DNA of 64,000 bases, taken from positions 6,269 through 70,268 of the forward strand of contig JAJDHH010000003.1 in the NCBI GenBank assembly GCA_030266105.1. Direction: 5' to 3'. A model generated the notes under the pieces. It was not told where the DNA came from. It saw nothing but the letters and a program-made list of their open reading frames with translations, and did not search any database. Shown piece after piece: positions 9,945-58,503 of this stretch (within the stretch, counting starts at the first letter, position 1; each line of letters opens with the position of its first letter). Source of the stretch: Eubacteriales bacterium OttesenSCG-928-K08 (GTDB lineage Bacteria > Bacillota > Clostridia > Christensenellales > CAG-138). The translations under genes were made by a program, and so were the position numbers.

Positions 9945-9967
9945 GTGCCCTCTCCAGAGGGCATTTT
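9945..9967 (+). terminator. Intrinsic terminator
   Basis: GTGCCCTCT-CC-AGAGGGCAT-TTT. Confidence 0.65.
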
Positions 9968-10050: not shown

Positions 10051-11691
10051 ATGTGGGCATTACAAAAGGCATGGTACCGTACATTTCAGTTCGTTTTTAA
10101 TTATGGCGCACGTTGCCTTAACTGGCGTAAACCGCAGCGAGTGGAGGGCGCGGGCAGCATCCTGAAAATCCCGGAAATATGCGCAAAAGAAAATGTAAAA
10201 AAGCCAATGATCGTCACCGACCCGGGGCTTATGAAAGCGGGCGTTGCTCTAAAAGTCATGGCTGTGCTGCAGGACAATAAAATCCCTTTTGCGCTGTATG
10301 ATACTGTTGAGCCCAACCCATCAGTTGATACGGTTAACGCCATTCAAGCGCTTTACTTCAAAGAGGGCTGCGATGGTTTTATCGCCATTGGCGGCGGCTC
10401 TGCGATGGATGCCGCCAAGGCCGCAGGCGCGCGTGTGGTTTTCCCAAACCGCACGGTTAATCAAATGGGCGGGCTGCTGCGCGTGTGGAAAAAAATACCC
10501 ATGTTTATTGCCGTTCCAACAACCGCGGGCACAGGCTCGGAAACAACGATTGCCGCGCTTATCACCGACACAAAAACACACCATAAGTACGCGATTATGG
10601 ATTTGCACCTTATTCCGCGCTATGCCGTGCTCGATGCGCAGCTGACAATCGGCCTGCCACCGCACATAACCTCCACAACGGGCATGGATGCGCTTACGCA
10701 CGCAATCGAGGGTTTTCTTTGCTGGACTTATAGCACAAAAGAAAGCACGCGCTTTGCGATGGAGGCCACAAAGCTGATATTCGAAAACCTTGAGCTTGTT
10801 TATAAGGATGGCTCGAATGTCGAAGCCAGGCAGCAAATGCAAATTGCATCCTTTAAAGCAGGCTTTGCCTTTACACGTGCGGGTGTGGGGAACGTGCATG
10901 CAATCGCACACACGCTTGGCGGGCTATATGGCACGCCGCATGGCCTTGCCAATGCGGTTATTTTGCCTATCGTGCTGGAGGATTATGGCCCGGCGGTTTA
11001 CGAAAAGCTTGCGCAGTTAAGCGAGCTTACGGGCATTAAAACCGATGGCAGCGAGGAAGAAAAGGCCAAGGCGTTAATTAGGGAAATTTATGATATGAAC
11101 GCACGCATGGGCATACCCACAGGCTTTGACTTTATCCAGGATGAGGATGTCGAGCAGATGATCACCTGGGCGCTAAAGGAATGCAACCCGCTTTACCCCG
11201 TGCCTGTGCTCTATAATCGCGAACGCTACCGGCGGGTGATCAAAAAAATACGCACACAAAAGAAAATGACGATAGGCGCTTCCTGCACAGGCTGCACCGC
11301 TTGCGCGCGCCTGTGCCCGGTGAGCGCGATTTCGGGTGAGCGTGGAAGCCGCCATGTGATAAACGCGTGCAGATGCGTGGAGTGCGGCGTGTGCGGCCGC
11401 GCCTGCCCGCAGGGCTGCATTACGGATGGAAAAGGAAAAGAGATTGCAAAACTCGCGCGCACAATGTGGCCCAAGCCCCAAATCGATAAGGATGTTTGCA
11501 GCGCATGCGGCATTTGTGTGGATATCTGCACGGCGGGAGCGCTAAAGCTGTCGTTGCCTAAGTATCAGGGGGATATCGATGTGTCGGTTGAGCTTGATGA
11601 GCCCAAAAGCTGTATCGGCTGCTCAATGTGTGCGGATAATTGCCCAATCGGCGCAATTGTGATGGAAAAGGAAGAGGTGCAGGCTCTATGA
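10051..11691 (+). CDS. Iron-containing alcohol dehydrogenase fused to a C-terminal 4x[4Fe-4S] polyferredoxin
   Basis: GGGSAMD, PTTAGTGSE, GMDALTHA, NVHAIAH, HGLANA; then four CxxCxxCxxxC motifs. Confidence 0.9.
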   Translation: MWALQKAWYRTFQFVFNYGARCLNWRKPQRVEGAGSILKIPEICAKENVKKPMIVTDPGLMKAGVALKVMAVLQDNKIPFALYDTVEPNPSVDTVNAIQALYFKEGCDGFIAIGGGSAMDAAKAAGARVVFPNRTVNQMGGLLRVWKKIPMFIAVPTTAGTGSETTIAALITDTKTHHKYAIMDLHLIPRYAVLDAQLTIGLPPHITSTTGMDALTHAIEGFLCWTYSTKESTRFAMEATKLIFENLELVYKDGSNVEARQQMQIASFKAGFAFTRAGVGNVHAIAHTLGGLYGTPHGLANAVILPIVLEDYGPAVYEKLAQLSELTGIKTDGSEEEKAKALIREIYDMNARMGIPTGFDFIQDEDVEQMITWALKECNPLYPVPVLYNRERYRRVIKKIRTQKKMTIGASCTGCTACARLCPVSAISGERGSRHVINACRCVECGVCGRACPQGCITDGKGKEIAKLARTMWPKPQIDKDVCSACGICVDICTAGALKLSLPKYQGDIDVSVELDEPKSCIGCSMCADNCPIGAIVMEKEEVQAL

Positions 11692-13577
11692 TGCAAAACC
11701 CGCTGTATGTGCACTTGGATTTGGGCACAGGCATTGTTCGCCAAATTCCTATATCGGATGAATATTTCAAGAAATATATTGGCGGGAAAACGCTTGCGGC
11801 CCGCTTGCTTTTGGACATGACGCGCCCGGGCATAGATTCGCTCGACCCTGAATCGATGATTATTATTAACACAGGCCCGTTAAACGGCACCGGCGCGCCA
11901 TCCTCAAGCCGGTTTAACATTACATTCAAAAATGTGCTTAGCGGGGGGATCGCTTCATCCAACTGCGGCGGTCAGTTTGGCGTTATGCTGCGCCGTGCGG
12001 GTTATGAGGGCCTCATTTTGACAGGCAAGGCGCAAAACCCCAGCGTTGTTCAGGTTATCGATGGTGAGGTGACATTGGTCGATGCCGGCGAGCTTTGGGG
12101 TTTGGACATGGAAGAAACTCAGGAGAAGCTCCCGCATGCGTATGGCAAGCTGGTGATTGGCCCCGCGGGAGAAAACCTTGTGCGCTTTGCTTCAGCCGGT
12201 TCGGGTGAGCGTATGGCGGGGCGCTGCGGTTGTGGCGCGGTGCTCGGCAGCAAAAATGTTAAGGCAATCGTCGCCTATGGAACAAAGCGTCCCGAGGTGC
12301 ACGACCCGGTTAAGTTCAATAAATTTGTGCGCAAATGGGTAAAGTTTATTAAAAATCACCCGATGACAGGCGAGGCGCTGCCGCGCTATGGAAGCGCGGG
12401 GCTTGTGAGCAAAGCAAATGCCACACACGCGCTGCCTACGCGCAATTTTAAATACGGCCAATTCGAAAATGCGGATAAGGTGAGCGGTGAAATGCTAACC
12501 GAAACAAAGCTTACGCGCAACGGCAACTGCATCAGCTGCCCCATACGCTGCGAGCGCCGCGTGATGGTGAGGGGCAAGGAGGTTAAAGGCCCCGAATACG
12601 AGACTATGGGGTTTTTTGGCCCCAATATCGATTCGGATGATCTTGACGCAATCCTGGAGCTTAACTATGTTTGTGATACGTTGGGGATGGATACCATCTC
12701 CGCCGCTTCAACAATCGCGTTCGCGATGGAGCTTAAGGAAAACGGCATAGCCGACTTTGGCGTCGAGTTTGGCAAAACGGATAATCTTGCTGAAGTTTTG
12801 CACAAAATTGCTTTTCGCGAGGGTGAGTGCGCAGAGCTTGCAAACGGCTCGAAATGGTTAAGTGAAAAATATGGCGGCAAGGAGTATGCAATCCACGCAA
12901 AAGGCTTGGAGCTTGCATCCTATGAGCCGCGCCGCTCGGTGGGCATGGGCTTAGGCTACGCAACCGCAAACCGTGGCGGCTGCCACCTTAATGGCGGCTA
13001 TCTTGCGCTGCTCGAATCGGTCGGCGTGCTGTCGATGGATGCGCAGACCCCTAAAGGCAAGGCGGAGTTTACCGTGTTTATGCAGGATGCGCTGGAGGCT
13101 GTTTCTTCGGCGGGCTTCTGCCTGTTTTCAGCGCAAACATTCGTAACGGCGATATTCTTCAAGCTTGGGCCAGCGCATTGGTTCACACGCTTTGTCGGCA
13201 GGGCCGCCACAAGGGTTGGCGGCGCAGTAAGGCTGATGCTGCGCTCAACATCGCTGCTGCGCTTTAACTCTTTCTATTTGCTGCCCCATGCGGAGGCCAT
13301 AAGGCTTGCGACGGGATTTAAAATGTATACCGGGCAGTTTATTGATCTTGGCGAGCGCGCATTTAATCTTGAGCGGATGTATAATTTGCGCGAAGGATTA
13401 ACCAGCGCCGACGACACATTACCATCCCGCCTCACTAAAGATCCGCAGGATAAAAACAGGCCGGATACAGTTGTGTCGCTGGATGCTATGCTGCCGCGCT
13501 ATTATAAAACCCGGGGCTGGGATGAGCAGGGCAGGCCGACCGCAAAGCGGCTTAACCAGCTTAAGATCGAGGTGTGA
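11688..13577 (+). CDS. aor: Aldehyde:ferredoxin oxidoreductase (AOR/WOR family tungstopterin enzyme)
   Basis: YIGGKTLA, SNCGG, GRCGCGAVLGSK, CISCPIRC, GPEYET, DTIS, NRGGCH, YYKTRGWD. Confidence 0.92.
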   Translation: MMQNPLYVHLDLGTGIVRQIPISDEYFKKYIGGKTLAARLLLDMTRPGIDSLDPESMIIINTGPLNGTGAPSSSRFNITFKNVLSGGIASSNCGGQFGVMLRRAGYEGLILTGKAQNPSVVQVIDGEVTLVDAGELWGLDMEETQEKLPHAYGKLVIGPAGENLVRFASAGSGERMAGRCGCGAVLGSKNVKAIVAYGTKRPEVHDPVKFNKFVRKWVKFIKNHPMTGEALPRYGSAGLVSKANATHALPTRNFKYGQFENADKVSGEMLTETKLTRNGNCISCPIRCERRVMVRGKEVKGPEYETMGFFGPNIDSDDLDAILELNYVCDTLGMDTISAASTIAFAMELKENGIADFGVEFGKTDNLAEVLHKIAFREGECAELANGSKWLSEKYGGKEYAIHAKGLELASYEPRRSVGMGLGYATANRGGCHLNGGYLALLESVGVLSMDAQTPKGKAEFTVFMQDALEAVSSAGFCLFSAQTFVTAIFFKLGPAHWFTRFVGRAATRVGGAVRLMLRSTSLLRFNSFYLLPHAEAIRLATGFKMYTGQFIDLGERAFNLERMYNLREGLTSADDTLPSRLTKDPQDKNRPDTVVSLDAMLPRYYKTRGWDEQGRPTAKRLNQLKIEV

Positions 13578-13578
13578 C

Positions 13579-13827
13579 ATGGTTTTTGTTAAATATCGCG
13601 CCACTTTGGCAGAGTTAACCGGCAAACGCGAGGAGCGGATTGAGGCGCAAAGTATTAAGGATGTTTTGCGTTATATAAATGCGCAATATGGAAAGCAAAC
13701 CGAAAAGGAAGCAAAACGTATGCTTATAACCGTGGATAGCGAAAGCATTCTTTTGCGCGATGGTTTTAAAACTAGGCTGAACGAAGACTCCGTAGTGGGG
13801 TTTTTTCCGATAAGCGGCGGCGGATGA
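13579..13827 (+). CDS. MoaD/ThiS family sulfur carrier
   Basis: 82 aa beta-grasp ending FPISGGG; follows aor. Confidence 0.85.
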   Translation: MVFVKYRATLAELTGKREERIEAQSIKDVLRYINAQYGKQTEKEAKRMLITVDSESILLRDGFKTRLNEDSVVGFFPISGGG

Positions 13828-13846: not shown

Positions 13847-14599
13847 CTAAAGCGGCGCAAGGCCCAGCTTCCACGTGCGCTTCATGAGCAAAAGCCCGAT
13901 AATTCCCGCGCCAAGCACAATGGCAAAAAAGAGCAGCGTGTGTATTGTTGGCGGAAAAACCTTATCAATAAGCATTGCGCGCGAGCATTCGGCAACATAA
14001 TAAAGCGGGTTCAGGCGCATTAAAAAAAGCAGCATTGATGAGCTGCTCGTAAAGGGCCAGGCTATAGGTGCCGTCCAAAAAATAAAGGGCAGAGCTATGC
14101 GCAGGCCGTTTTGCGTGGAATTTCCGGCTATTGGCAAAAACGCGCAAATGAAAAGCCCCTGGCCAGCTGCGCTTAATATGTTGCACAAAATAATATAGGG
14201 CAAAAATTTAAGCCCCTGCATGGGCATGCTGTAAAAAAGCGAAGCCACCAAACAAACGCACATCCAAACAAGCAGCGTGGGCAGTGCGCTTATAGCAAGG
14301 CCCGGCGCAAGCGAGATGGGGCTGTTGCGGTTAAGATACGCGCGGAATGCGCCCGGCTGGCCGGGCAGCTTGTGGAGTATTTCACTAAAATAAAACCACG
14401 GCGCTATCCCATAAAGCAAAAATAAGGGATATGGAAAGTAACCCGTGTCCACCCGCCCGTTAAGCGCAAAAATCAGCGCCGCACAAAAAATAGCCTGCTC
14501 AAGCAGCTGCTCAAGTCGCTCGCTTATGGAGGCGTTCCACCACATATAATATGCAAACGTAAGCATGCGGGGCATGCGAAATCTCCTTTCAAGCTTCAT
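13847..14599 (-). CDS. ABC-2 type permease (TagG/Wzm-like), no ATPase partner nearby
   Basis: YPLFLLYGIAPWFYFSE, FWTAPIAWP, LNPLYY..E..R motifs; about 6 TM segments. Confidence 0.65.
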   Translation of the reverse strand: MKLERRFRMPRMLTFAYYMWWNASISERLEQLLEQAIFCAALIFALNGRVDTGYFPYPLFLLYGIAPWFYFSEILHKLPGQPGAFRAYLNRNSPISLAPGLAISALPTLLVWMCVCLVASLFYSMPMQGLKFLPYIILCNILSAAGQGLFICAFLPIAGNSTQNGLRIALPFIFWTAPIAWPFTSSSSMLLFLMRLNPLYYVAECSRAMLIDKVFPPTIHTLLFFAIVLGAGIIGLLLMKRTWKLGLAPL

Positions 14600-15419: not shown

Positions 15420-16052
15420 TTGATGAATGGTCGTAAGGTATCAGAGGCAGTTGTAAGGCGACTTCCGCGTTACTATAGGCGTTTGGAGCTGCTCAAGCGA
15501 AAGGGTGTGGAGCGCATCTCCTCAAGCGAGCTTGCGCAGCAAATGAACCTTAACCCTTCGCAGGTGCGGCAGGATTTGAACTGTTTTGGCGGTTTTGGTC
15601 AGCAGGGTTATGGCTATCATGTCAGCACGCTTTTTGATGAGATTGCCAATATACTTGGCCTCACTCAGCAATACAAGCTTGTGATTGTCGGCGCGGGGAA
15701 TATTGGCCAGGCGCTTGTGCAGTACGAGGGTTTCAGGCAGCAGGGCTTTATGGTTGTGGCGCTGTTTGATGTTAATGAAAAAATTGTTGGCAGCGAAATT
15801 GCGGGCCTGCCCGTGCTGCATGTGGATGAGCTAAAGCAATTTATCGAAGAGAACAATGTCGATATTGGCATCATTGCCGCGCGCAGGTCCGCCGCACAAG
15901 ATATTGCGGACACAATGGCGGATGCGGGAATACGAGGCATATGGAATTTTGTGCCGACGGATGTTACCGCAGACGTACCGCTTGAAAATGTGCATTTGAG
16001 CGACAGCATGCTGGTATTATCCTATCGCCTTAACGAGCAGGGCGAAAAATAG
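15420..16052 (+). CDS. rex: Redox-sensing repressor Rex
   Basis: RRLPRYYR, QVRQDLNCFGGFGQQGYGY, GAGNIG, IWNFVP. Confidence 0.96.
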   Translation: MMNGRKVSEAVVRRLPRYYRRLELLKRKGVERISSSELAQQMNLNPSQVRQDLNCFGGFGQQGYGYHVSTLFDEIANILGLTQQYKLVIVGAGNIGQALVQYEGFRQQGFMVVALFDVNEKIVGSEIAGLPVLHVDELKQFIEENNVDIGIIAARRSAAQDIADTMADAGIRGIWNFVPTDVTADVPLENVHLSDSMLVLSYRLNEQGEK

Positions 16053-16120
16053 TTTATTCGTGCAACAAAAGTGCGAGTTTAGAGTTGCGCGGGCAAGCGT
16101 AAAACCGTATACTGTTTTTA

Positions 16121-16238
16121 GCAGAGTAAGCTGCATGCGTAAGCCATTTTAATGGCTTGGGCCGCACGGGGATGGGAAGTTGCCCCGGCGGGAAGAGGCA
16201 AGTGTCTTTTGCCCACGATGTGCTGCTGCGTCCGCTGC
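16121..16238 (+). ncRNA. THF (tetrahydrofolate) riboswitch
   Basis: GCAGAGTAAG...GCGT, CGGGGATGGGAAGTTGCCCCG, ...CGTCCGCTGC match the THF aptamer; followed by a terminator-like GGGCGTTATTTTTTT; upstream of folT. Confidence 0.88.
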
Positions 16239-16347
16239 GCAATACGCCCTTGGCTGATTATGGTGCACTTTTAAAGTGCATGGCTTTAGGCATTTGCGCC
16301 CAACAATTCCCGGGCGTTATTTTTTTGCCGCCCGGATGGGAGGCGAC

Positions 16348-16890
16348 ATGATGCGTGTTCAATTTCAAACAAAACGGATTGTAGTTTGCGGCCTGCTGTG
16401 CGCAATTGGTGTTGTGCTTGGCGGGCTGCTTAGCGTTCCGGCATTTCCGCTTGGAGTGTATTCAGTAAAAATCAGCCTTGCTAACCTGCCGGTTATTCTT
16501 TCGGGCGTGCTGTTTGGGCCTTTATATGGTGCGATCGTTGGGGGGCTGACGGACTTTTTGCAGGCGCTTTTGTTCCCAAAAGGTGCGTTTGTGCCGTGGT
16601 TTACGCTTGTCAGCACATTATTTGGGCTTATCCCGGGTCTGTTTTTTCGTCATGGCGAAAAGGTTACATTCCCGCGCCTGGCGGCAGCCGTTGTAAGTGG
16701 GCAGGTGGTAGGCTCGCTTTTGCTCAACACACTTTTGATGGTTTGGCTTTATGGCCTTCCTTTTTGGTCGCTTTTACCCACAAGGCTTATCAACCAATCC
16801 ATCATGATTCCGTTGTTTGTGGTGATAATTTACCTTCTTGTGCCGTTATTGGAACGGCATGGCGTTCGTTTTCCAAGGCAGGAACATTAA
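16348..16890 (+). CDS. folT: Folate ECF transporter S component
   Basis: S-component pattern (LFGPLYGAIVGGLTD, GAFVPWFTL, LLNTLLM..LYG); THF riboswitch upstream. Confidence 0.88.
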   Translation: MMRVQFQTKRIVVCGLLCAIGVVLGGLLSVPAFPLGVYSVKISLANLPVILSGVLFGPLYGAIVGGLTDFLQALLFPKGAFVPWFTLVSTLFGLIPGLFFRHGEKVTFPRLAAAVVSGQVVGSLLLNTLLMVWLYGLPFWSLLPTRLINQSIMIPLFVVIIYLLVPLLERHGVRFPRQEH

Positions 16891-49045: not shown

Positions 49046-50890
49046 TTATTTTATGCCAAGCTCTTCTGCCGTAAAGGTGCGGCCATATACGAGAGTATAA
49101 TATGCGTCCACATCCGCCATAAGCTCGTCTTTGGTGTATAGCTCCGGGTGCAGGTTGTTCGTTGCCCAGCAGACGCCCAGGCAGCATGATGCTGTCGGAT
49201 AATCCCATGGCTCCAGCGCAGAGGGGAATTGATACACCGCTTTGTTTTTGACGGCATTTGTTGCAGTCCAGCCCGCATCGTTGAGTATATCGTCCACTGT
49301 GTAGTCGGCGTATGCGGGAATCCAGATTACATCCGGGTTCCAAACGATGATCTGCTCGAGATTGACCTCGGCAAACTCACCCTTTACATCAATGCCGGTA
49401 ACGGCGTTTTTGCCGCCTGCGGCTTCAATGATGTAGCTTTGAATCATCGCTTCGGGCGCAACGGTCAGCATGGAGCTGCCGCCAAGGAACATTACGCTTG
49501 GTTGCCTGCTCGCCTTTGAGGAGACTTCCTTGGCTTTTGTCACCTGATTATCGAAGAATTCACAGATTTCAGCCGCGCGCGCTTCCTCGCCCAACGCCTT
49601 CGCAACCAGTGTCAGCGAGTTTTTGATGGTGTCGAAGCTTTCCGTATTGGGCAGCGCAACAATGGCGGGCACACCCACTGCCTCGTATTGCTCCGCCTGA
49701 TCGGTGAAACGCTCGGGCAGTATCGCAAGGTCGGCGCCAATTGAGGCCACCGTTTCAAAGTTGATGTTTTTGCCCTTGCCAATGGAGGTCAGGCTATCAA
49801 AATTTTCGATGACATACTGGTATAGGCCATCCGCCATTTCCTTGTTGCCAAAGCCTGCAAGGTACTTCCCGCCTCCGCCAAGCACGATGGCGGTGTTCAT
49901 GGATGGGTTGTGTGTGCCAACCACCTTTGTGGCAGCACCGGGCAGCGTTACCGTGCGGCCAACAACGTCAGTCAGCGCAATTTCACCCGCCATGGTGAAG
50001 AAAAGCTGCTCGCCGTATTCAGCAACGCCATATGAGTCTATCAATTGCGTGGCTTTTTCGCCCTGCATCCATTCGATGAAGGCGTTTGCGCCATCGATGT
50101 TGGTGTCCGCCCATTTGTCGGGGGAGATTGCCAGCATGGAGTATGTGTTTTTCATCTCATCAGAACGCTCCAACAGCAGATTAAGCTGTGGGCGCATTTC
50201 ATGCGCGAGATAGGTGGCCTTGTCGCTAAGCACATATGCCTGCTCTTCGGCGGCCATTGTAATGCACGCGCCCATGCCCTGCCCGGCGGAAACATACCAG
50301 CTATCCTTTTCGGGGTTGGGTTCGATTTGCGCGGCAGCCCATATTTTGTTCTCCGCGTTGTGCGTGCCGCTGCTGTCGCCGCGGGAGATGAATGTAAACC
50401 CGCCTTCGGCAATGGCTTTAAACGCCTCGGTGGCGTTTGCAGCGCTTCCAACGCCTGCCGGATCGTCCGCCGGGCCAAGTATCACAAAATAGTTGTACAT
50501 GAAGGGAATACGCTCAGCCGCAAAGCCTTCCGATATGAATGTTTCCTCTGCGGATTTTGAGTGCACGAGCAGCGCGTCGGCATCGCCTGTGCGGCCTTTT
50601 TCAATCGCTGCGCCTGTGCCTGCGGATGTGATTTCAAGTTTGTATCCGGTGTCCGCCTCAAATTCCGGCTGCAGGTAGGGCAACAGGCCGGAGTCATTAA
50701 CGGATGTTGTTGTTGAAAGCCTTATGATTGGGTTGGCGGGCCCTTCGTCAGCCGGTTCAGGGCTGGGCGCCACATCAACAACGGGCGCTTCGGGTGTTGG
50801 ATCTGCTGATGGTTGTGTTGCAGGCGTGCATGCAACCATGCCAAGCACAAGCAACAACGCAAGAATAATAGTGAGTGGTCTGTTCTTCAT
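49046..50890 (-). CDS. tupA: Lipoprotein: TupA tungstate-binding domain fused to a helical-backbone (Peripla_BP_2) binding domain
   Basis: Lipobox MVAC; RLSTTTSVNDSGLL, GTG.A, SRGDSSGTH, GQGMG; from about aa 300 TDVVGRTVTLP, NFETV, NLEQIIVWNPDVI, AVKNK.VY. Confidence 0.88.
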   Translation of the reverse strand: MKNRPLTIILALLLVLGMVACTPATQPSADPTPEAPVVDVAPSPEPADEGPANPIIRLSTTTSVNDSGLLPYLQPEFEADTGYKLEITSAGTGAAIEKGRTGDADALLVHSKSAEETFISEGFAAERIPFMYNYFVILGPADDPAGVGSAANATEAFKAIAEGGFTFISRGDSSGTHNAENKIWAAAQIEPNPEKDSWYVSAGQGMGACITMAAEEQAYVLSDKATYLAHEMRPQLNLLLERSDEMKNTYSMLAISPDKWADTNIDGANAFIEWMQGEKATQLIDSYGVAEYGEQLFFTMAGEIALTDVVGRTVTLPGAATKVVGTHNPSMNTAIVLGGGGKYLAGFGNKEMADGLYQYVIENFDSLTSIGKGKNINFETVASIGADLAILPERFTDQAEQYEAVGVPAIVALPNTESFDTIKNSLTLVAKALGEEARAAEICEFFDNQVTKAKEVSSKASRQPSVMFLGGSSMLTVAPEAMIQSYIIEAAGGKNAVTGIDVKGEFAEVNLEQIIVWNPDVIWIPAYADYTVDDILNDAGWTATNAVKNKAVYQFPSALEPWDYPTASCCLGVCWATNNLHPELYTKDELMADVDAYYTLVYGRTFTAEELGIK

Positions 50891-50895
50891 TTGAG

Positions 50896-50996
50896 TTCTC
50901 TCCTTTTCAAATTGGGAGGCATTGCCGTTTCCAGCAATACCCTATCGTGGAAAATCCATGGCGCTAACGCTTTAGGATTGAACCATCGGAGTAGAA
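50896..50996 (-). ncRNA. Moco/Wco riboswitch, translational type
   Basis: Minus strand CTCCGA...CCTAA...CATGG...GGTATTGCTG-GAAA-CGGCAATGCC-TCCC...AAAGGAG; the P1 3' strand is the tupA RBS. Confidence 0.88.
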
Positions 50997-51178
50997 TTTG
51001 GATGCATCCTGTACAATGTTATAGCATTTTTTCAATATAATCAAGCTTCACATCACATTTTATAGACAACAAACTACAACATTTTTGTACTATACATAAT
51101 ATATGAAAAAATTGACCTAAAGCAAAAAAATGGTCATTTTGAGTGCGAATATAGCCGGTTTAGATAACAAACGGCAAA

Positions 51179-51303: not shown

Positions 51304-52044
51304 TTATGTAGCGGAGTAAACATCGGCCATAACAAGCGCAAGCTGTTTTTTGCGGCAGGCATCACAAAGTGTGCTGGGCTCGGTGCCAGCTTTTTCTGCT
51401 GCAAAGTTGAGCTCCTCTTGCGTGCCCATTTGTGCGCCGCAGCTTGCGCAGTGAACAAGTGTGAACGTTTTTTCCCACACAGTGCGTGTGGTTTCATTCT
51501 CATGATATTCAATGGCCTTTGTGGGGCAAACACGTGCACAGCTGCCGCAGCCAATGCAGTCGGCAGGCGGTTCATTAAAAGGCGGAGCAATTTCTTTTGT
51601 GATGCCACGGTTTACCGTGGCGATTGCCCCTGCGCCCAATGTGCTGCATGCGCGCACGCATAAGCCGCAAATTATGCACTTACCATCTTTTTCATTTAGC
51701 TTGTCAAGTGCGGGGGCGCTATAGGCCTTGCATAGTGCCGCGATGATTTCGCTTTGTGGCGCGCGCTTTTGGAGCAGCCTGAGTATTATACCACGCTGCT
51801 GTTTGATTTTTTCATTGTTGGTGTGCACCTCGCATTCGTTCAAAACGGGATAAATGCACGACACCACGGTTTTGCTCCAACCACGCTCAACAACCTCCAC
51901 AATACACACACGGCAGCAGCCCTGGCCTAATAACCCTTCGTGGTTGCAGAGCGTGGGAATATATATGCCGTTGCGCCTGGCAACTTCCAATAAAAACTCA
52001 CCCGGTTCACATGTGCAGCTTTTTCCATCTATCACGATATTCAT
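51304..52044 (-). CDS. BfuA/HydA-like FeS subunit without catalytic H-cluster
   Basis: IPTLC...G.CRVCIVE...SC 2Fe-2S; KCIICGLCVRAC, CIGCGSCARVCP; C-terminal CxxC..CxxC. Confidence 0.85.
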   Translation of the reverse strand: MNIVIDGKSCTCEPGEFLLEVARRNGIYIPTLCNHEGLLGQGCCRVCIVEVVERGWSKTVVSCIYPVLNECEVHTNNEKIKQQRGIILRLLQKRAPQSEIIAALCKAYSAPALDKLNEKDGKCIICGLCVRACSTLGAGAIATVNRGITKEIAPPFNEPPADCIGCGSCARVCPTKAIEYHENETTRTVWEKTFTLVHCASCGAQMGTQEELNFAAEKAGTEPSTLCDACRKKQLALVMADVYSAT

Positions 52045-53843
52045 TTTTGAGCCCTCCCCTGTGCCAGAATGGCCTCAAAGCGGCAGGCTTGCCGGCAGCT
52101 TCCGCACGCTATGCAGCTGCGTTGGTCAATTTCATAAGCTTGCCCTTTTTCGCCGCGAATGGCATTAACCGGGCAATTTTTCTTGCATAAGCCGCAGCTT
52201 TTGCATTTGTTTTTTTCAATAACAAATGTGGTGAGCTTTGAGCAAACACCCGCAGGGCAGTATTTGTTATGTATGTGTGCCTCATATTCATCGCGGAAGT
52301 ATTTTAGCGTGGTTAACACAGGATTTGGCGCGGATTTACCAAGCGCGCATAGCGAGCTTTCCGCAATTGTTTGGCAGAGCTGCTCCAGCAGCTCCAAATC
52401 GCCATCTTGGCCACGGCCTTCGCATATTCCGGTCAAAATATCCAGCATGTGCCTAAGCCCTTCGCGGCAGGGTGTGCATTTCCCGCAGCTTTCCTCTGTG
52501 AGGAATTTTACATAATAGCGCGCTACTTCAACCATGCAATCCCTGTCGTCCATCACGATCATGCCGCCAGAACCCATCATCGCGCCATATTGTGTCAAGG
52601 TGTCAAAGTCAACAGGTAAATCGAGCATGGCGCTGGGGATGCAGCCGCCGGAAGGCCCACCAGTTTGCACGGCTTTAAAGGGCCGGTCATCTATTATTCC
52701 GCCGCCAATGTCAAAAATCAGGTGGCGGAGGGTGGCGCCCATTTGCACTTCGACAAGTCCTGTGCGTTTAACCTTGCCAACCAGCGCAAACACCTTTGTT
52801 CCGCTGCTTGTTTTTGTGCCAAGCGTTGCATACAAAGGGCCGCCATCGCGTATGATGACGGGAATGTTGGCGAAAGTTTCAACATTGTTTAGCACTGTGG
52901 GGCAATCCCACAGGCCGCGCTGAACTGAACGGATATATTTTGCGCGGGGTTCGCCCACACGCCCTTCAATCGAGGCCATTAGTGCGGTGCTTTCGCCGCA
53001 AACAAATGCGCCGCCCCCGCGAACAACCGAGAGATTTAAAGCCTTGCCGCTGCCCATGATGTTTTTGCCCAGGAAACCAAGCTCAAGCGCGGACGCTAAC
53101 GCAGCATTTACATTTTTGAGTGCGAGGCCATATTCATCCCGAATGTAGAGGAAACCTTCGGTCGCGCCTATTGCCAGCGCACAGATTGCCATGCCCTCAA
53201 TCACGCTATGCGGGTCGCCTTCCAGTATGGATCGATCCATAAACGCACCGGGGTCGCCTTCGTCGCCATTGCACACAACATATTTGGGGAACACATCGTA
53301 TCCGGCGGCGGTTCTCCATTTGCGGCCTGTGGGAAAGCCCGCGCCGCCCCGGCCGCGAAGGCCGGAAAGCTCAACCTGCTCTATAATTTCACTGCCTGAC
53401 ATGTTGAGCGCTTTTGTAAGCGCTTCATATCCGCCCCTGGAAATGTAATCCTCAATGTTTCCAGGATCAATTTCGCCAATGTTGCGCAGCGCAATCTTAT
53501 ATTGTGGCTTGTAGAATGGGTTTTCTAGCTTGCTTTTTATGCGTTCGCCATTTTCGTTTTTGTAGAGCAGGCGCTCAACAACTTTGTTTTCCTGCAGCGC
53601 GCTTAATATATCCTGCGCATCATGAGGCTTGACTTTATAGTAAGAAATATCGTCCGGCAATATTTGAACGATTGGGCCATTCTCGCAAAATCCGTTGCAG
53701 CCCGTGCGCTTAATGTGCGCCTTAACCTCAATTTGCCCCATTACGCCCATCTTGTTTATGGCATTTTCAAGCGCCTGAACAACCTGTTCACTTCCGTTTG
53801 CCAGGCAGCCGGTTCCGCAGCATACTAATAGGGTGCGCTTCAT
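52041..53843 (-). CDS. BfuB/HydB (NuoF-like) FMN/NAD subunit
   Basis: N-terminal thioredoxin-like 2Fe-2S, GRGGAGFPTG, NGDEGDPGAFMD, GGPSGG, ESCGKCTPCREG, H....CPAGVC, 2x[4Fe-4S]. Confidence 0.93.
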   Translation of the reverse strand: MKRTLLVCCGTGCLANGSEQVVQALENAINKMGVMGQIEVKAHIKRTGCNGFCENGPIVQILPDDISYYKVKPHDAQDILSALQENKVVERLLYKNENGERIKSKLENPFYKPQYKIALRNIGEIDPGNIEDYISRGGYEALTKALNMSGSEIIEQVELSGLRGRGGAGFPTGRKWRTAAGYDVFPKYVVCNGDEGDPGAFMDRSILEGDPHSVIEGMAICALAIGATEGFLYIRDEYGLALKNVNAALASALELGFLGKNIMGSGKALNLSVVRGGGAFVCGESTALMASIEGRVGEPRAKYIRSVQRGLWDCPTVLNNVETFANIPVIIRDGGPLYATLGTKTSSGTKVFALVGKVKRTGLVEVQMGATLRHLIFDIGGGIIDDRPFKAVQTGGPSGGCIPSAMLDLPVDFDTLTQYGAMMGSGGMIVMDDRDCMVEVARYYVKFLTEESCGKCTPCREGLRHMLDILTGICEGRGQDGDLELLEQLCQTIAESSLCALGKSAPNPVLTTLKYFRDEYEAHIHNKYCPAGVCSKLTTFVIEKNKCKSCGLCKKNCPVNAIRGEKGQAYEIDQRSCIACGSCRQACRFEAILAQGRAQK

Positions 53844-54301
53844 GGTGTCACCTCCCTGTATGCGTCAATGATCTCTGGCAGCTTTTCAAGTGTGACCTTG
53901 CTGTAATAGGTTTCATCCACAACCATCACAGGCGCAATCGCACATGAACCCAGGCAGTTAACAAGCTCCAACGAAAAAAGGCCATCCTGGCTTGTTTCGC
54001 CCGGAGCTATGCCAAGCAGGCGTTCAATTCCGTCAATAAGCTGGTTTGCGCCCCGTATGTGGCAGGCCGTACCATCACAAAGCTTAATTATGTGCTTACC
54101 CTTTGCATCCAGGCTAAGCGCCTTATAGAAGGTTGCCATGGAGTAAAGTTGAGCGGTTTTGCAACCGATATGCTGGGCTAGCAGCTCAATCCCCTCGCGT
54201 GGCACATGCTTAAACTGGCGCTGCATGTCCTGCATGGCAGCAAGCGCATAACGCAGCTCTTTTGGGTATTTTGTAATGAGGGAAAGAATTTCTTCTGTCA
54301 A
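53840..54301 (-). CDS. BfuC/HydC (NuoE-like) 2Fe-2S subunit
   Basis: ATFY, CDGTACH, NCLGSCAIAP; TTG start. Confidence 0.92.
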   Translation of the reverse strand: MTEEILSLITKYPKELRYALAAMQDMQRQFKHVPREGIELLAQHIGCKTAQLYSMATFYKALSLDAKGKHIIKLCDGTACHIRGANQLIDGIERLLGIAPGETSQDGLFSLELVNCLGSCAIAPVMVVDETYYSKVTLEKLPEIIDAYREVTP

Positions 54302-54336
54302 TCTGATTCCACCCTTCGTTTGCGTTTAAAGTTTGT

Positions 54337-54609
54337 TTATCCTCCAGCAACCAGCGGGAATACAGCAACGACATTTTGCTCACTGAGCGTAGTTGCCACT
54401 CCATTAAGGTGCACAATATGGCGCCCATTAACAAGCACGATTGCGTCAGGCCCCAGCGCTTGCCTGTCCTGCGTGAGCAGTTTTTCGTAAAACGCGGGGA
54501 ATTTTTCGCAAAGCTCAATTAAAAGCGCCAACACATCCTTTGGGGGAGCTATGTTCATCTGCGCGCATTTTGTGATTTCCCGGTAGGTTGCAAAAAACTT
54601 CACAGTCAT
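54337..54609 (-). CDS. MoaD/ThiS family sulfur carrier
   Basis: VKFFAT.R, VLVNGR, FPLVAGG. Confidence 0.9.
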   Translation of the reverse strand: MTVKFFATYREITKCAQMNIAPPKDVLALLIELCEKFPAFYEKLLTQDRQALGPDAIVLVNGRHIVHLNGVATTLSEQNVVAVFPLVAGG

Positions 54610-54666
54610 ATCAACATGTTAAACTGCCGCCACGCACAGCAGGCGCTATGCGTGGCGGTCTTTCTC

Positions 54667-56463
54667 CTATATGCTTAATTGTTCGAGCTTATCGGCGGTG
54701 GGTACGCCTTCCTTATCCCAGCCGCGCAAAGTGTAGTATTCCTCCAGCATTTCGTAAAGCTCCGCAACCTTGCCCTTTGCAGGGCCGCTTGGCAGCTTTT
54801 CACGCAGCAGGCGCGGCGGCAAAGTATCCTTCTCAACACCGGCGGCAATGTTAAAGCGCTTCTCCAGGTTCCAGCAGCGCTCGCCTTTGAGGAGAATTTC
54901 TTCATCCGTCTCATCTGAGCCTATCGCCTCGCGGTATTGCGCAGAAAGCTCAGGCAATCCAATGCCAAATGTTGTAAAAAGGCAAAGGCCCAAGCTATCC
55001 ACAAGCGCCGTCAGGTCTTGGAACAGCTTTAACAGGGCGGGCTTTCCTTCTGTTTCAAGCGGGTCGGTCTTGAGCGGAACGCCGAGAATTTCTGGCGATG
55101 TCAGGTAACCGCGCACGTGGCAGCCGCCACGGTTGCTTGTTGCATACTCAAGCGCCATGCCCTGGATGGCCCGGCCATCATAGGCGGGCATTTCCTGCTT
55201 TTTGACTGACATTGAAAGCTCGGGGTGCCCATATTTTTCTGCCAGACGGTAGGAACCCAAAGCGAGTATTTCACCAAAACCTTCGCCCTTGCCAACGGCC
55301 TCGGTGAGGTTTACGACTGCGTGCGCATCGCCAAACCGCAATGGGAAGCCGATATCTTCCTCAGGGATGGCGCCCATTTCAAAAAGCTCCATCGCACAGG
55401 CGATTGTTGCGCCAAGCGTAATGGGGTCCATGCCGTATTCATTGCACAGGAAGTTCGCCTTGCAGATTGCCGCAAGATCGTTCACGCCACAATCCGCCCC
55501 AAAGGACCAGCCTGCTTCATATTCAGGGCCTTCGCCAAAGGAGGCAAACGGGCCATCCGGCACGCGGGTCACACGGCCGCAGGCAATTGAGCAGCCAAAG
55601 CAGCCTTTGTTTTTAACGAGGTAAGTATCCGCGAGCCGTTCGCCGGAGGTATCGTCCGCCTTATCAAAAACTGCGCCGTCGCGCCAGTTGCGAAGCGGGA
55701 GCGCACCACTTTCGTTGATAACGTTGACCAGCACCTCCGTGCCAAGCGCAGCAAGGCCTGCGCCCGAAACCGGGTGAGCCTTGAGTTTAGCGCGCGCATC
55801 GGCCATCGCATCCATAAAGGGCTCGGGGCGCACAACGGTTACGGAGCCTGTGCCGCGCACAACGACTGCCTTGAGCTTTTTGCTGCCCATCACAGCGCCC
55901 AGGCCGCCACGGCCTGCAGCACGGTGCTTGTCGTTCATGACTCCGCTGTAAAGGCAGCCGCGCTCACCGGTTGGGCCAATGCAGGCCACACGGAAGGATG
56001 CGCCGCAGGTTTCGTTGAGCATATCGGTGGTTTCATAAACGGTTTTGCCCCAAAGCTCTTCGGCATCCCTAAGCTCCACAATATCGTTATGGATAAACAG
56101 ATAGACGGGTTTTTCGCTCTGGTTTTCGAATATGATTCCATCGTAGCCGGCATATTTTAGCTCGGGGCCAAAGTGCCCGCCGGAGTTTGCTGCGCCAATT
56201 GTGCCTGTTAGCGGCGCTTTGGCGACAACCTCGTAGCGCCCTGAGCAGGATGCGGCAGTGGCGGTCAGCGGCCCTGTCATAAATATTAATTTATTGTCGG
56301 GGCCAAGCGGATCCACATTGGGGTCAACTTCATCGCAAAAATATTTTGTGCCCAGTCCGCGTGCGCCTACATAATCGTTAGCCGCTTTCATGTTTAAGGG
56401 TTCTTTTTTAATTTCGCCCGTTGCCAGGTTTACACGAAGTAATTTTCCAATCCAGCCGCCCAT
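54667..56463 (-). CDS. aor: Aldehyde:ferredoxin oxidoreductase (true-AOR-like tungstoenzyme)
   Basis: [67 protein letters not shown]. Confidence 0.95.
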
Positions 56464-56465
56464 GA

Positions 56466-56939
56466 TTACGCCCCCTCTCCAAATACTTCTTTGAAGCTCT
56501 CGGCCACAGCTTTTTTCCTGTCCAAATCCTCCTGCGGCTCCACATATTCAATGGCTCCCCAGGGGCAGAATTTTGCGCACTTGGGGTCGCCATCGCACAA
56601 GTCGCACTTAAACACCTTGCGCGTAATAGGGGAGTAGCTGATGTTCCCAAGCGGGCAGGCATTTTGGCACATTTTGCAGACTATGCACTTTTGCGCATTC
56701 ATCACAACCGCGCCGTTTTCGTTCCTTGAGATCGCCCCCACAGGGCAAACCTTCAGGCAGGGCGCTTCATCGCATTGAAGGCACATGATGGGGATGGAAA
56801 CCGCGGCCTGCTCATAGTCCATCACAGTAACGGCGGAAAGACATGGGTTGAACTGTTCCGTGTGGCCAAACGAGCACACAAGCTCGCAGGTACGGCACCC
56901 TACGCATTTTTCTGGTTTGATGATCAGTTGCTTGCTCAT
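56466..56939 (-). CDS. 4x[4Fe-4S] small subunit (WorS/AorA, DmsB-like)
   Basis: [15 protein letters not shown]...PC..VCP, CIVCKMC...CP, KCDLC...P.C...CP. Confidence 0.9.
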
Positions 56940-57011
56940 TGTTCCTTTTCCCGCGAAAAACAACGCGGGAATCCACCTCCTTTTCTAAAATATGGCATTG
57001 GAAGGTTGAGG

Positions 57012-57051
57012 AAACGAAAACCCGCAGGAAGAAAAGACTTCTTCCTGCGGG
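57012..57051 (-). terminator. Leader terminator (riboswitch expression platform)
   Basis: Minus strand CCCGCAGGAAGAA-GTCTT-TTCTTCCTGCGGG-TTTTCGTTT. Confidence 0.85.
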
Positions 57052-57148
57052 CTCCTTTGCAAGAATGGCAGGCTGCAGAGTTTCCCCCGCAACCCATTGG
57101 TCGCAATGGCCGCCTGGGTCGATTGCGACTCGGAACGCTCCTCGCAGA
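57051..57148 (-). ncRNA. Wco/Tuco-type (P3-less Moco motif) riboswitch
   Basis: Minus strand TTCCGA-GTCGCAAT...ATTGCGAC-CAAT-GGGTTGCGGG-GGAAA-CTCTGCAGCC-TGCC...AAAGGAG; no P3 stem; upstream of a W-enzyme operon. Confidence 0.8.
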
Positions 57149-58329: not shown

Positions 58330-58503
58330 ACAAAACCTCATGGCATCTACTATGACGAGAATGTGAAAACAATGTATGTTCGTTAGCTTATAGCTTTATT
58401 TTGGCAGTCTTTCGTGTTAATATAAGGGCAACAAAACATGGTATTGTGTGCGGGGGCGTGCGCAATACCTTGCTTTTATATTTTGAGCAATGAGGGTAAT
58501 TTC

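Follow-up and report, generated by a model that had tools for sequence, protein, structure and literature searches.

The 64,000-nucleotide stretch of DNA analyzed here in its entirety (the window) lies on the forward strand of contig JAJDHH010000003.1 (positions 6,269-70,268) of Eubacteriales bacterium OttesenSCG-928-K08, a gut-type anaerobe whose assembly GCA_030266105.1 is a draft, 59% complete and divided into 111 contigs. It encodes a protein in which an iron-dependent alcohol dehydrogenase (Fe-ADH, or ADH) is continued by a polyferredoxin module with four iron-sulfur (FeS) cluster motifs, which we call Fd4, followed by the genes for the large subunit of a predicted tungstopterin aldehyde:ferredoxin oxidoreductase (AOR, also WorL) and for the small protein WorX. 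This fusion is a conserved multi-domain architecture and not a chance pattern, and it probably unites in a single complex the two enzymes by which alcohols, aldehydes and acids are converted into one another. Our best reading of adh::fd4-aor-worX is that of a Class II-like tungsten oxidoreductase (WOR) whose small subunit carries an NAD-dependent ADH, and we hold a tethered ADH-Fd4-AOR complex for alcohol/aldehyde/acid conversion to be likely; a functional coupling of ADH and AOR, its direction, its substrate and the channeling of the aldehyde are what we infer from this arrangement.

Composition of the operon

The fusion occupies a single open reading frame (ORF) of 546 residues (10051-11691, + strand). 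Its residues 1-400 (10051..11250) form an Fe-type (group III) NAD-dependent ADH domain, as indicated by Pfam matches, relatives in the PDB, conserved columns and the structural model: PF00465 (Fe-ADH) covers residues 31-195 (5.5e-44) and PF25137 (ADH_Fe_C) residues 208-381 (7.7e-41), both far above their curated cut-offs, and there are 42 solved relatives, among them 8zrl (1.8e-65) and 3bfj (1.1e-59). The GGGS motif (G114-G115-G116-S117) and D57, which we take to be the Asp after beta-strand 2 that indicates a preference for NAD, are invariant across 20 fusions. In alignments with DhaT (3bfj) and Mdh (8zrl), D213 and H217 (DALTH), H283 (VHAIAH, the VHAxAH motif) and H297 (PHG) fall on the corresponding motifs; they are presumably the metal ligands (D198, H202, H267 and H281 in DhaT). 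The domain matches Fe-ADH families only and shows neither a flavin nor any other converter between one-electron and two-electron chemistry; the best NCBIfam match to a named enzyme (lactaldehyde reductase, ErcA and the like) scores 301 bits against a cut-off of 523, and the fusion has no match to the aldehyde dehydrogenase (ALDH) family Aldedh (PF00171) that an AdhE-type protein would carry. Specific to the subfamily are an N-terminal helix at residues 2-22 (10054-10116, +) with the conserved CRxFQFVFNxGARxLxWRK and an NPLYPVP motif. The same subfamily also occurs fused to ALDH in the reversed AdhE order (P0188, P0189, P0220), to DUF2804 (P0198, P0219), to YhhN membrane domains (P0178, P0181, P0186) and to a PfkB-like region (P0172).

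Beyond the junction R-T-Q-K-K (11251..11265, +), Fd4 begins at what was ancestrally a start methionine, Met406, and extends over 11266..11691 (+), TGA stop included. Several Fer4 dicluster families of Pfam match residues ~400-540, and the last 140 residues of the protein contain four CxxCxxCxxxC motifs (C412/415/418/422, C442/445/448/452, C483/486/489/493 and C521/524/527/531), whose 16 cysteines are all invariant in an alignment of 20 C-terminal-type fusions. The module is confidently modeled (pLDDT 91.8) and consists, by sequence and fold, of two tandem clostridial 2x[4Fe-4S] ferredoxin units, with the FwdF/MvhB polyferredoxins as its nearest relatives (sequence 2.1e-25, profile 3.7e-39, Foldseek 3.7e-10).

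The aor gene (11688..13577, +; 629 residues) overlaps the end of the fusion in the tetranucleotide ATGA at 11688-11691, where direct reading places the TGA of the fusion at 11689-11691 and the ATG of AOR at 11688-11690, preceded by the ribosome-binding site GGAAGAGG; the overlap suggests that the fusion and aor are translationally coupled. AOR matches AFOR_N (2.2e-62) and AFOR_C (2.5e-117), its best solved relatives being 9mqx_D (1.2e-122) and 1aor (6.9e-122). C281, C284, C288 and C478 (CxxCxxxC and a distant Cys), E303 and H433 do not vary among the 17 AORs aligned and, by analogy with the Pyrococcus furiosus AOR, we take the cysteines to be [4Fe-4S] ligands and the last two to be the catalytic Glu and His. 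A hydrophobic insertion of ~45 residues (residues ~482-530; 13131-13277, +) is conserved in all 16 of the Fd4/ADH-linked AORs aligned, is aligned through in direct ADH-AOR fusions and is absent from a second WorL encoded in the window; solved AORs match the protein in two stretches flanking it. The insertion lies outside the predicted Fd4 interface described below and could be a docking site for ADH.

One base beyond the AOR stop starts worX (13579..13827, +; 82 residues), a MoaD/ThiS-like beta-grasp protein that matches ThiS (PF02597, 1.7e-08) and falls just below the cut-off of moaD_arch (TIGR01687, 1.1e-11; 45.1 bits against 49.5), and whose C-terminal end reads ...SGGG, with the terminal GG of its kind. 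WorX, whose name and ThiS-like nature follow PMC13328260 and PMC11725836, is thought to act in pterin cofactor processing.

The ADH-Fd4 junction

In unfused relatives ADH ends in "...IRK" or "...IML" followed by a stop codon, and Fd4 begins a few codons later with "MAY.IT..C", whereas the window reads "...IRTQKKMTIGASC". Relatives thus have a stop codon within the junction stretch or close to it, at the point where the window has a sense codon (CAA, Gln, at 11257-11259): the window has ...IRTQKKMTIG, L087 has ...IENIML-stop-GKKMAFNI and L005 has ...IRK-stop-ISGGLPMAYY. The linker between the domains measures ~6 residues, and in the model of the full-length fusion (pLDDT 86.7, pTM 0.73) the last ADH helix (residues 390-400) runs almost straight into Fd4, so that the tether is short. 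The fusion would most likely have arisen when an adh|fd4|aor operon lost the stop codon of adh.

The open frame is also found outside the source assembly. A contig from one public DNA run (share 0.09), which represents a relative ~93% identical and not the source sample, spans 10900-11900 uninterrupted and differs by 70 substitutions and by no insertion or deletion; among the 40 of 66 substitution rows listed, those near the junction (~11215-11280) are silent or change R to K, and none falls in codons 11254-11265. Four metagenome loci (L084, L085, L089 and L083, the last with a frameshift inside its ADH part) likewise carry an uninterrupted frame from ADH into Fd4. An earlier note on this DNA, which had described an Fe-ADH with intact NAD and metal motifs and four C-terminal CxxCxxCxxxC motifs, the overlap of its stop with the AOR start, and a MoaD gene after AOR, is borne out on these points by Pfam matches, alignments and direct reading; a stop codon between the two domains, which it had named as fatal to the idea, is found neither in the window nor, among the substitutions listed, in the second assembly.

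Adjoining genes of this type are often in the same frame, with one or two stops and a few codons between them, as in five of nine junctions of adh with fd4 or with an Fd4-AOR gene (L005, L006, L086, L087, L088), and adh is followed by aor in the same frame in four of four junctions (L175-L178); a single substitution therefore divides the fused from the split state. With regard to programmed readthrough, the spacers of the in-frame junctions are short, a start Met follows each of them and two of the four adh|aor loci are close kin, and the shared frame may be a matter of chance plus kinship.

Fusion states and linkage to aor among relatives

Proteins of 300-956 residues that combine Fe-ADH family and Fer4 domains number 41, truncated ones and the window's own protein included, and Fd4 and its partners are joined in more than one manner. 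Fd4 occurs as a free protein of ~140-160 residues (most of the 109 matches below 300 residues), on the C-terminus of ADH as in the window, on the N-terminus of ADH (P0029-P0042), and on the N-terminus of AOR (P0028, P0030 and L086, in the last of which adh lies directly upstream). Finally, Fd4 is absent from direct ADH-AOR fusions (P0166, 1029 residues; P0169, 1026 residues) that belong to the same ADH and AOR subfamilies, with 47-51% identity to the window in ADH and 43-47% in AOR, and which are known only as isolated representative sequences, detached from any DNA context. A triple ADH-Fd4-AOR fusion was not found among proteins of 957-2730 residues, which is weak evidence.

In whichever order the domains of an ADH::Fd4 fusion are arranged, aor stands beside the Fd4 end: this holds for 16 of 16 assessable fusions, either with aor downstream of ADH-Fd4 (the window, L083, L084, L085, L089) or with aor upstream of Fd4-ADH (L010-L016, L109, L116, L118, L166), L110 having been left out of the count because its fusion is cut at a contig end. 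Unfused trios adh|fd4|aor occur in L004, L005, L006, L087, L088, L091 and L164, and in L008 (Faecalicatena fissicatena) and L094 an Fe-ADH of a different subfamily (34-37% identity) takes the same position. Among species-representative genomes, aor is adjacent in 14 of 22 full-length Fd4 loci. At one Syntrophaceae locus (L018, 245-3734) an Fd4 homologue (41% identity) is followed by a 176-residue ORF without a Pfam family and by two Fe-ADH genes, on a 5.3-kb contig that contains no aor and offers just 244 nt upstream.

The three proteins diverge in step between two clades: identities to the window are 66-71% (ADH), 52-55% (Fd4) and 71% (AOR) in clade A (L004-L006), and 48-52%, 38-46% and 45-48%, respectively, in clade B (L010 and L012-L016; L011 holds only a fragment of AOR). 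Full-length C-terminal-type fusions form 17 cluster representatives at 57-71% identity. Within the taxonomic family of the window's organism we find adh|fd4|aor (G249), fd4|aor (G197) and aor|Fd4-ADH (G021), and adh|aor pairs devoid of Fd4 appear in four of 401 genomes sampled from the phylum. The sources of module proteins and loci include Oscillospiraceae, Acutalibacteraceae, Christensenellaceae, Bacillota and Treponema/Treponemataceae, so the module crosses phyla.

Predicted Fd4-AOR complex

Prediction of AOR together with Fd4, from alignments of 17 rows for AOR and 22 rows for Fd4, gave an ipSAE of 0.76 (0.76, 0.78 and 0.73 in the individual runs), whereas the highest-scoring of three controls stood at 0.00. 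The mark of the AOR-Fd4 pair was reached by 116 of 157 solved complexes and by 2 of 215 mismatched pairs, counts that are approximate when custom alignments are used. At least 90% of contacts are shared between runs, with partner pLDDT of at least 83. In the predicted interface AOR residues 277-287, which include the cluster cysteines 281 and 284 (Cys 288 comes next in the loop), face the third and fourth cluster motifs of Fd4, which is the arrangement that an electron path requires. The prediction supports a docking of Fd4 on WorL that would align the clusters of the two proteins, bearing in mind that the AorAB, WOR5 and WOR1 complexes have already been solved and that the result for AOR and Fd4 may partly be memory.

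Proposed function and alternative explanations

Fd4 has four [4Fe-4S] motifs and is encoded beside WorL, as the operational definition of WorS given in PMC13328260 demands, and we infer that it is the small, WorS-like electron-transfer subunit of the downstream AOR. In the mechanism that we propose, WorL would oxidize an aldehyde to the acid at its tungstopterin, or reduce the acid, and electrons would pass between the [4Fe-4S] cluster of WorL, the four clusters of Fd4 and soluble ferredoxin or flavodoxin, Fd4 taking the part that WorS plays in a Class II enzyme. The ADH would stand outside this electron chain, because it has no flavin and so cannot turn one-electron FeS chemistry into hydride transfer. 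By binding WorL, Fd4 would hold the ADH active site within a few nanometers of AOR, so that a toxic and thermodynamically awkward aldehyde could be made and consumed inside one particle, while WorX would help cofactor maturation. The net reaction would then be alcohol + NAD+ + H2O + 2 oxidized ferredoxin <-> acid + NADH + 2 reduced ferredoxin. The flavin-free ADH and the direct ADH-AOR fusions that dispense with Fd4 suggest that the tether serves the organic intermediate and not the electrons. Solidesulfovibrio fructosivorans is known to use ADH and AOR as separate proteins one after the other, in either direction (PMC10084766).

Several observations weigh against this proposal. As far as sequence and models tell, Fd4 does not appear demonstrably homologous to the solved WorS and AorA subunits: compared with AorA (8c0z_F) it reaches only Z 5.8 and a root-mean-square deviation (rmsd) of 3.1 over 67 aligned residues, it is 30% identical over 110 residues to the WorS of the window's own WOR1 operon, which has a Fer4_11 match where Fd4 has none, and AorA, WOR5-beta and Wor1S were not found as sequence relatives of Fd4 among the best 60 of 212 and the best 60 of 186 PDB matches. 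Of the 22 full-length Fd4 homologues, 8 (L017-L024, 33-44% identity; Syntrophaceae, Desulfomonilaceae, Planctomycetota and others) lack aor in the flanks examined, and where the ADH subfamily occurs without Fd4 it is mostly unlinked, 17 of 19 unfused full-length loci, each with at least 2.5 kb on both sides, having no aor. Ahead of the adh::fd4-aor-worX operon no molybdenum/tungsten cofactor (Moco/Tuco) riboswitch was found, unlike ahead of the WOR1 operon, both RF01055 matches of the window lying elsewhere. Moreover, among 401 genomes of the order the C-terminal fusion exists only in the window's own genome and close relatives carry separate genes, for which reason the fusion could be nearly neutral.

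The alternative that fares best builds on this last point: Fd4 would be the small subunit of AOR, as we propose, with an ordinary soluble ADH attached to it by an accidental loss of the stop codon, bringing no benefit from coupling or channeling. The window differs from its unfused relatives essentially by a sense codon in place of a stop, the neighboring genes of L005, L006, L087 and L088 (adh and fd4) and of L086 (adh and an Fd4-AOR gene) being in the same frame with one or two stops between them, and both the rarity of the fusion in the order and the unfused genes of members of the same family would fit such an accident. On the other hand, the fused state has been kept across a diverged clade, namely the 17 full-length representatives and the metagenome loci, it recurs in three other architectures (Fd4-ADH, Fd4-AOR and ADH-AOR), and in L008 and L094 the place of the ADH is taken by an Fe-ADH of another subfamily; as a whole, this speaks for selection on the proximity of ADH and AOR, and we regard a neutral fusion as unlikely.

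Still less probable, in our view, is that Fd4 serves a partner other than AOR, as a built-in ferredoxin or redox sensor of the ADH, with the adjacency of aor being incidental. Such a role might be read from the Fd4 loci that have no aor, from L018, where Fd4 precedes two Fe-ADH genes on a contig of ~5 kb, and from the closeness of Fd4, in sequence and fold, to the generic polyferredoxins FwdF and MvhB. Against it, Fd4 is on the AOR side of ADH in every assessable fusion, natural Fd4-AOR fusions exist, the Fd4-AOR interface is predicted at 0.76 against 0.00, and the overlap of the fusion stop with the aor start points to translational coupling. Besides, Fe-ADH enzymes transfer a hydride to NAD, a reaction for which no FeS cluster is needed.

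A third alternative, which we consider very improbable, would have Fd4 wire the tungsten site to the ADH/NAD site, giving either an NAD-linked AOR similar to the Class III AorABC, with ADH substituting for the FAD subunit, or else an enzyme that dismutates aldehydes. It draws on an analogy, since the AorA polyferredoxin connects AorB to the NAD-reducing AorC (PMC12096430, PMC10413684), but an ADH with neither flavin nor other converter could not receive such electrons, and ADH-AOR fusions that lack Fd4 show a tether independent of any FeS wire. Lastly, an assembly or sequencing error that removed the stop between adh and fd4, conceivable in a draft of this completeness and fragmentation and with a single base separating the junction codon from a stop, can hardly be credited in view of the independent ~93% identical contig, which is open across the junction among the substitutions listed, and of the many independent fused homologues.

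We thus retain the tethered ADH-Fd4-AOR complex. The suggestion of the earlier note that the FeS subunit of an AOR had been fused to the ADH, tethering the two enzymes, gains from the linkage data, the predicted Fd4-AOR interface and the natural fusions, whereas its further idea that the aldehyde is channeled stays hypothetical, and the module is a tandem clostridial-type polyferredoxin, not demonstrably a relative of the solved AorA and WorS subunits. Of the checks it had proposed, linkage of the fusion homologues to aor came out positive throughout (16 of 16), and complex formation was passed in silico by AOR and Fd4, in company with the natural Fd4-AOR and ADH-AOR fusions.

Comparison with known systems

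The classification of WORs published in 2026 distinguishes five classes: L; LS; LS with an FAD subunit; LS with ABC; and membrane-bound LS (PMC13328260). The present system most resembles Class II (WorL and WorS, often with WorX), exemplified by P. furiosus WOR5/ASOR (6X1O), Caldicellulosiruptor bescii GOR and Eubacterium limosum Wor2SLX, with which it shares the order of small FeS subunit, large subunit and ThiS-like WorX, the four [4Fe-4S] clusters of the small subunit, the lack of FAD/Bfu subunits and ferredoxin as the presumed carrier (PMC13328260, PMC11725836). It departs from these enzymes in that an Fe-ADH carries its small subunit as C-terminal domain, this subunit being a tandem clostridial-type ferredoxin without Fer4_11, and in that its AOR matches WOR5 at only 1.3e-42 and carries the ~45-residue insertion.

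AorABC of Aromatoleum aromaticum (Class III, 8C0Z) has a related large subunit (1.1e-94) and a four-cluster polyferredoxin that bridges the tungsten subunit to a second, NAD-handling protein, to which Fd4 may be likened. Its third component, however, is an electronically wired FAD protein and the complex forms filaments, whereas here a flavin-free Fe-ADH would act on the organic product; none of the three genes of the operon encodes an FAD or NAD(P)-oxidoreductase domain. The bifurcating WOR1 of Class IV (WorSLABC, 9MQX) contains the best solved relative of the window's AOR, and the same organism has its own copy, with presumably the same cofactor, at 51304-56963 (-). That copy is, by contrast, a separate operon with its own WorS, NuoE/F-like WorC/B, WorA and a Moco/Tuco riboswitch, and the two AORs are 34% identical; WorABC are not part of the adh::fd4 operon and lie ~40 kb away with their own WorSL. 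Hence adh::fd4-aor-worX is a second, distinct WOR of this organism, beside the canonical Class IV WOR1 operon, and the window offers further tungsten context in two Moco/Tuco riboswitches (RF01055) and a possible tungstate/molybdate-type binding protein.

Covalent union of an Fe-ADH with an enzyme that makes or consumes aldehydes is also a feature of AdhE and of the reversed ADH-ALDH fusions, and Fe-ADH/ALDH fusions have been described as recurrent and convergent (PMC12454647), but here the partner, instead of a CoA-acylating NAD enzyme, would be a tungstopterin AOR that uses ferredoxin and acts on free acids, and the tether would pass through an FeS subunit. The Adh and Aor of Solidesulfovibrio/Desulfovibrio (ethanol <-> acetate, with the Hnd hydrogenase) belong to the same enzyme families and would carry out the same chemistry, yielding NADH and reduced ferredoxin (PMC10084766), although those genes lie apart and encode separate proteins, whereas the ones here form one operon and their products would be physically tethered. 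A search with PF02906 found no [FeFe]-hydrogenase in the window's genome, which is 59% complete. The FwdF/MvhB polyferredoxins of methanogens (5T5I, 9SW6), like Fd4, are made of clostridial 2x[4Fe-4S] repeats and serve as electron wires in tungsten or molybdenum enzyme complexes, but they hold 8 to 12 or more clusters and have different partners, and their whole-length rmsd from Fd4 of 22-25 A means that only single domains superpose.

The earlier note could recall no characterized example of this architecture, and our full-text literature searches likewise found no published description of a fusion of AOR, ADH and polyferredoxin. This extends to the 2026 classification: the terms 'alcohol dehydrogenase', 'ADH' and 'fusion' do not occur in the main text of PMC13328260, and the three supplementary files examined contain neither an Fe-ADH InterPro identifier nor 'alcohol dehydrogenase', though its large gene-context dataset may list ADH-fused WorS.

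Wider significance

As given in PMC13328260, only five of 92 WOR clades hold a member with a defined physiological role. A recurrent covalent link between AOR and ADH supplies, for one group of gut and termite-gut type anaerobes, a testable hypothesis, namely the conversion of an alcohol to an acid, or the reverse, with the reactive aldehyde kept in the complex. AOR and ADH have been combined artificially in biocatalysis to reduce acids to alcohols (PMC12096430); a naturally tethered version, together with its split, Fd4-AOR and ADH-AOR variants, would be a ready system for studying channeling and the evolution of fusions.

More speculatively, and with more doubt than confidence on our part, these proteins may represent one more class of tungsten oxidoreductase, so far undescribed: a metabolon with alcohol:acid oxidoreductase activity, of which Fe-ADH would be an integral component, anchored through the polyferredoxin or, in relatives, joined directly to WorL. 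Aldehyde would pass from one enzyme to the other before it could equilibrate with the cytoplasmic pool, NADH and reduced ferredoxin would arise in the 1:1 ratio used by confurcating hydrogenases, and single stop/sense substitutions would toggle between fused and split forms. If true, this would give a role to AORs of gut Oscillospiraceae-type bacteria and Treponema to which no function has been assigned, and provide a natural template for acid-to-alcohol biocatalysis.

Operon boundaries and other features of the window

A terminator-like hairpin (9945..9964, +; an 8-pair stem and a T-run, recognized by consensus match only) ends the upstream gene for an Hpt-domain protein and sets the 5' limit of the adh::fd4-aor-worX unit, and the gene downstream of worX is on the opposite strand, so that the unit comprises three genes. 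This downstream gene (13847-14599, -), which follows worX directly, encodes a 250-residue, apparently multi-pass membrane protein that has no Pfam match. A Rex gene is present at 15420-16052; no Rex box was found near the operon, the window having 6 loose matches against 3.2 expected and none close to 10051.

The WOR1-like operon (51304-57147, -) is a complete Class IV operon of the bifurcating type, which comprises worS (56466-56963), worL (54667-56463), a NuoE-like gene (53840-54301), a NuoF-like gene (52041-53843) and a gene for a 2Fe-2S/4Fe-4S protein (51304-52044), preceded by an RF01055 riboswitch (57034-57147, -; 42.4 bits). The second RF01055 riboswitch (50884-51003, -; 61.1 bits) lies ahead of a 614-residue protein (49046-51003 region), a solute-binding fusion of PBP_like_2 and Peripla_BP_2 that may combine a tungstate/molybdate binding protein with a further binding module. 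Adjoining the WOR1 operon region is the gene for a 1001-residue protein (58438-61443, +) that combines a BcrAD_BadFG ATPase with DUF2229 and is of the 2-hydroxyacyl-CoA dehydratase/benzoyl-CoA reductase activator type. At 16120-16890 (+) a tetrahydrofolate (THF) riboswitch (RF01831, 37.2 bits, barely over its gathering score) precedes a 204-residue membrane protein that is probably a component of a folate-family transporter.

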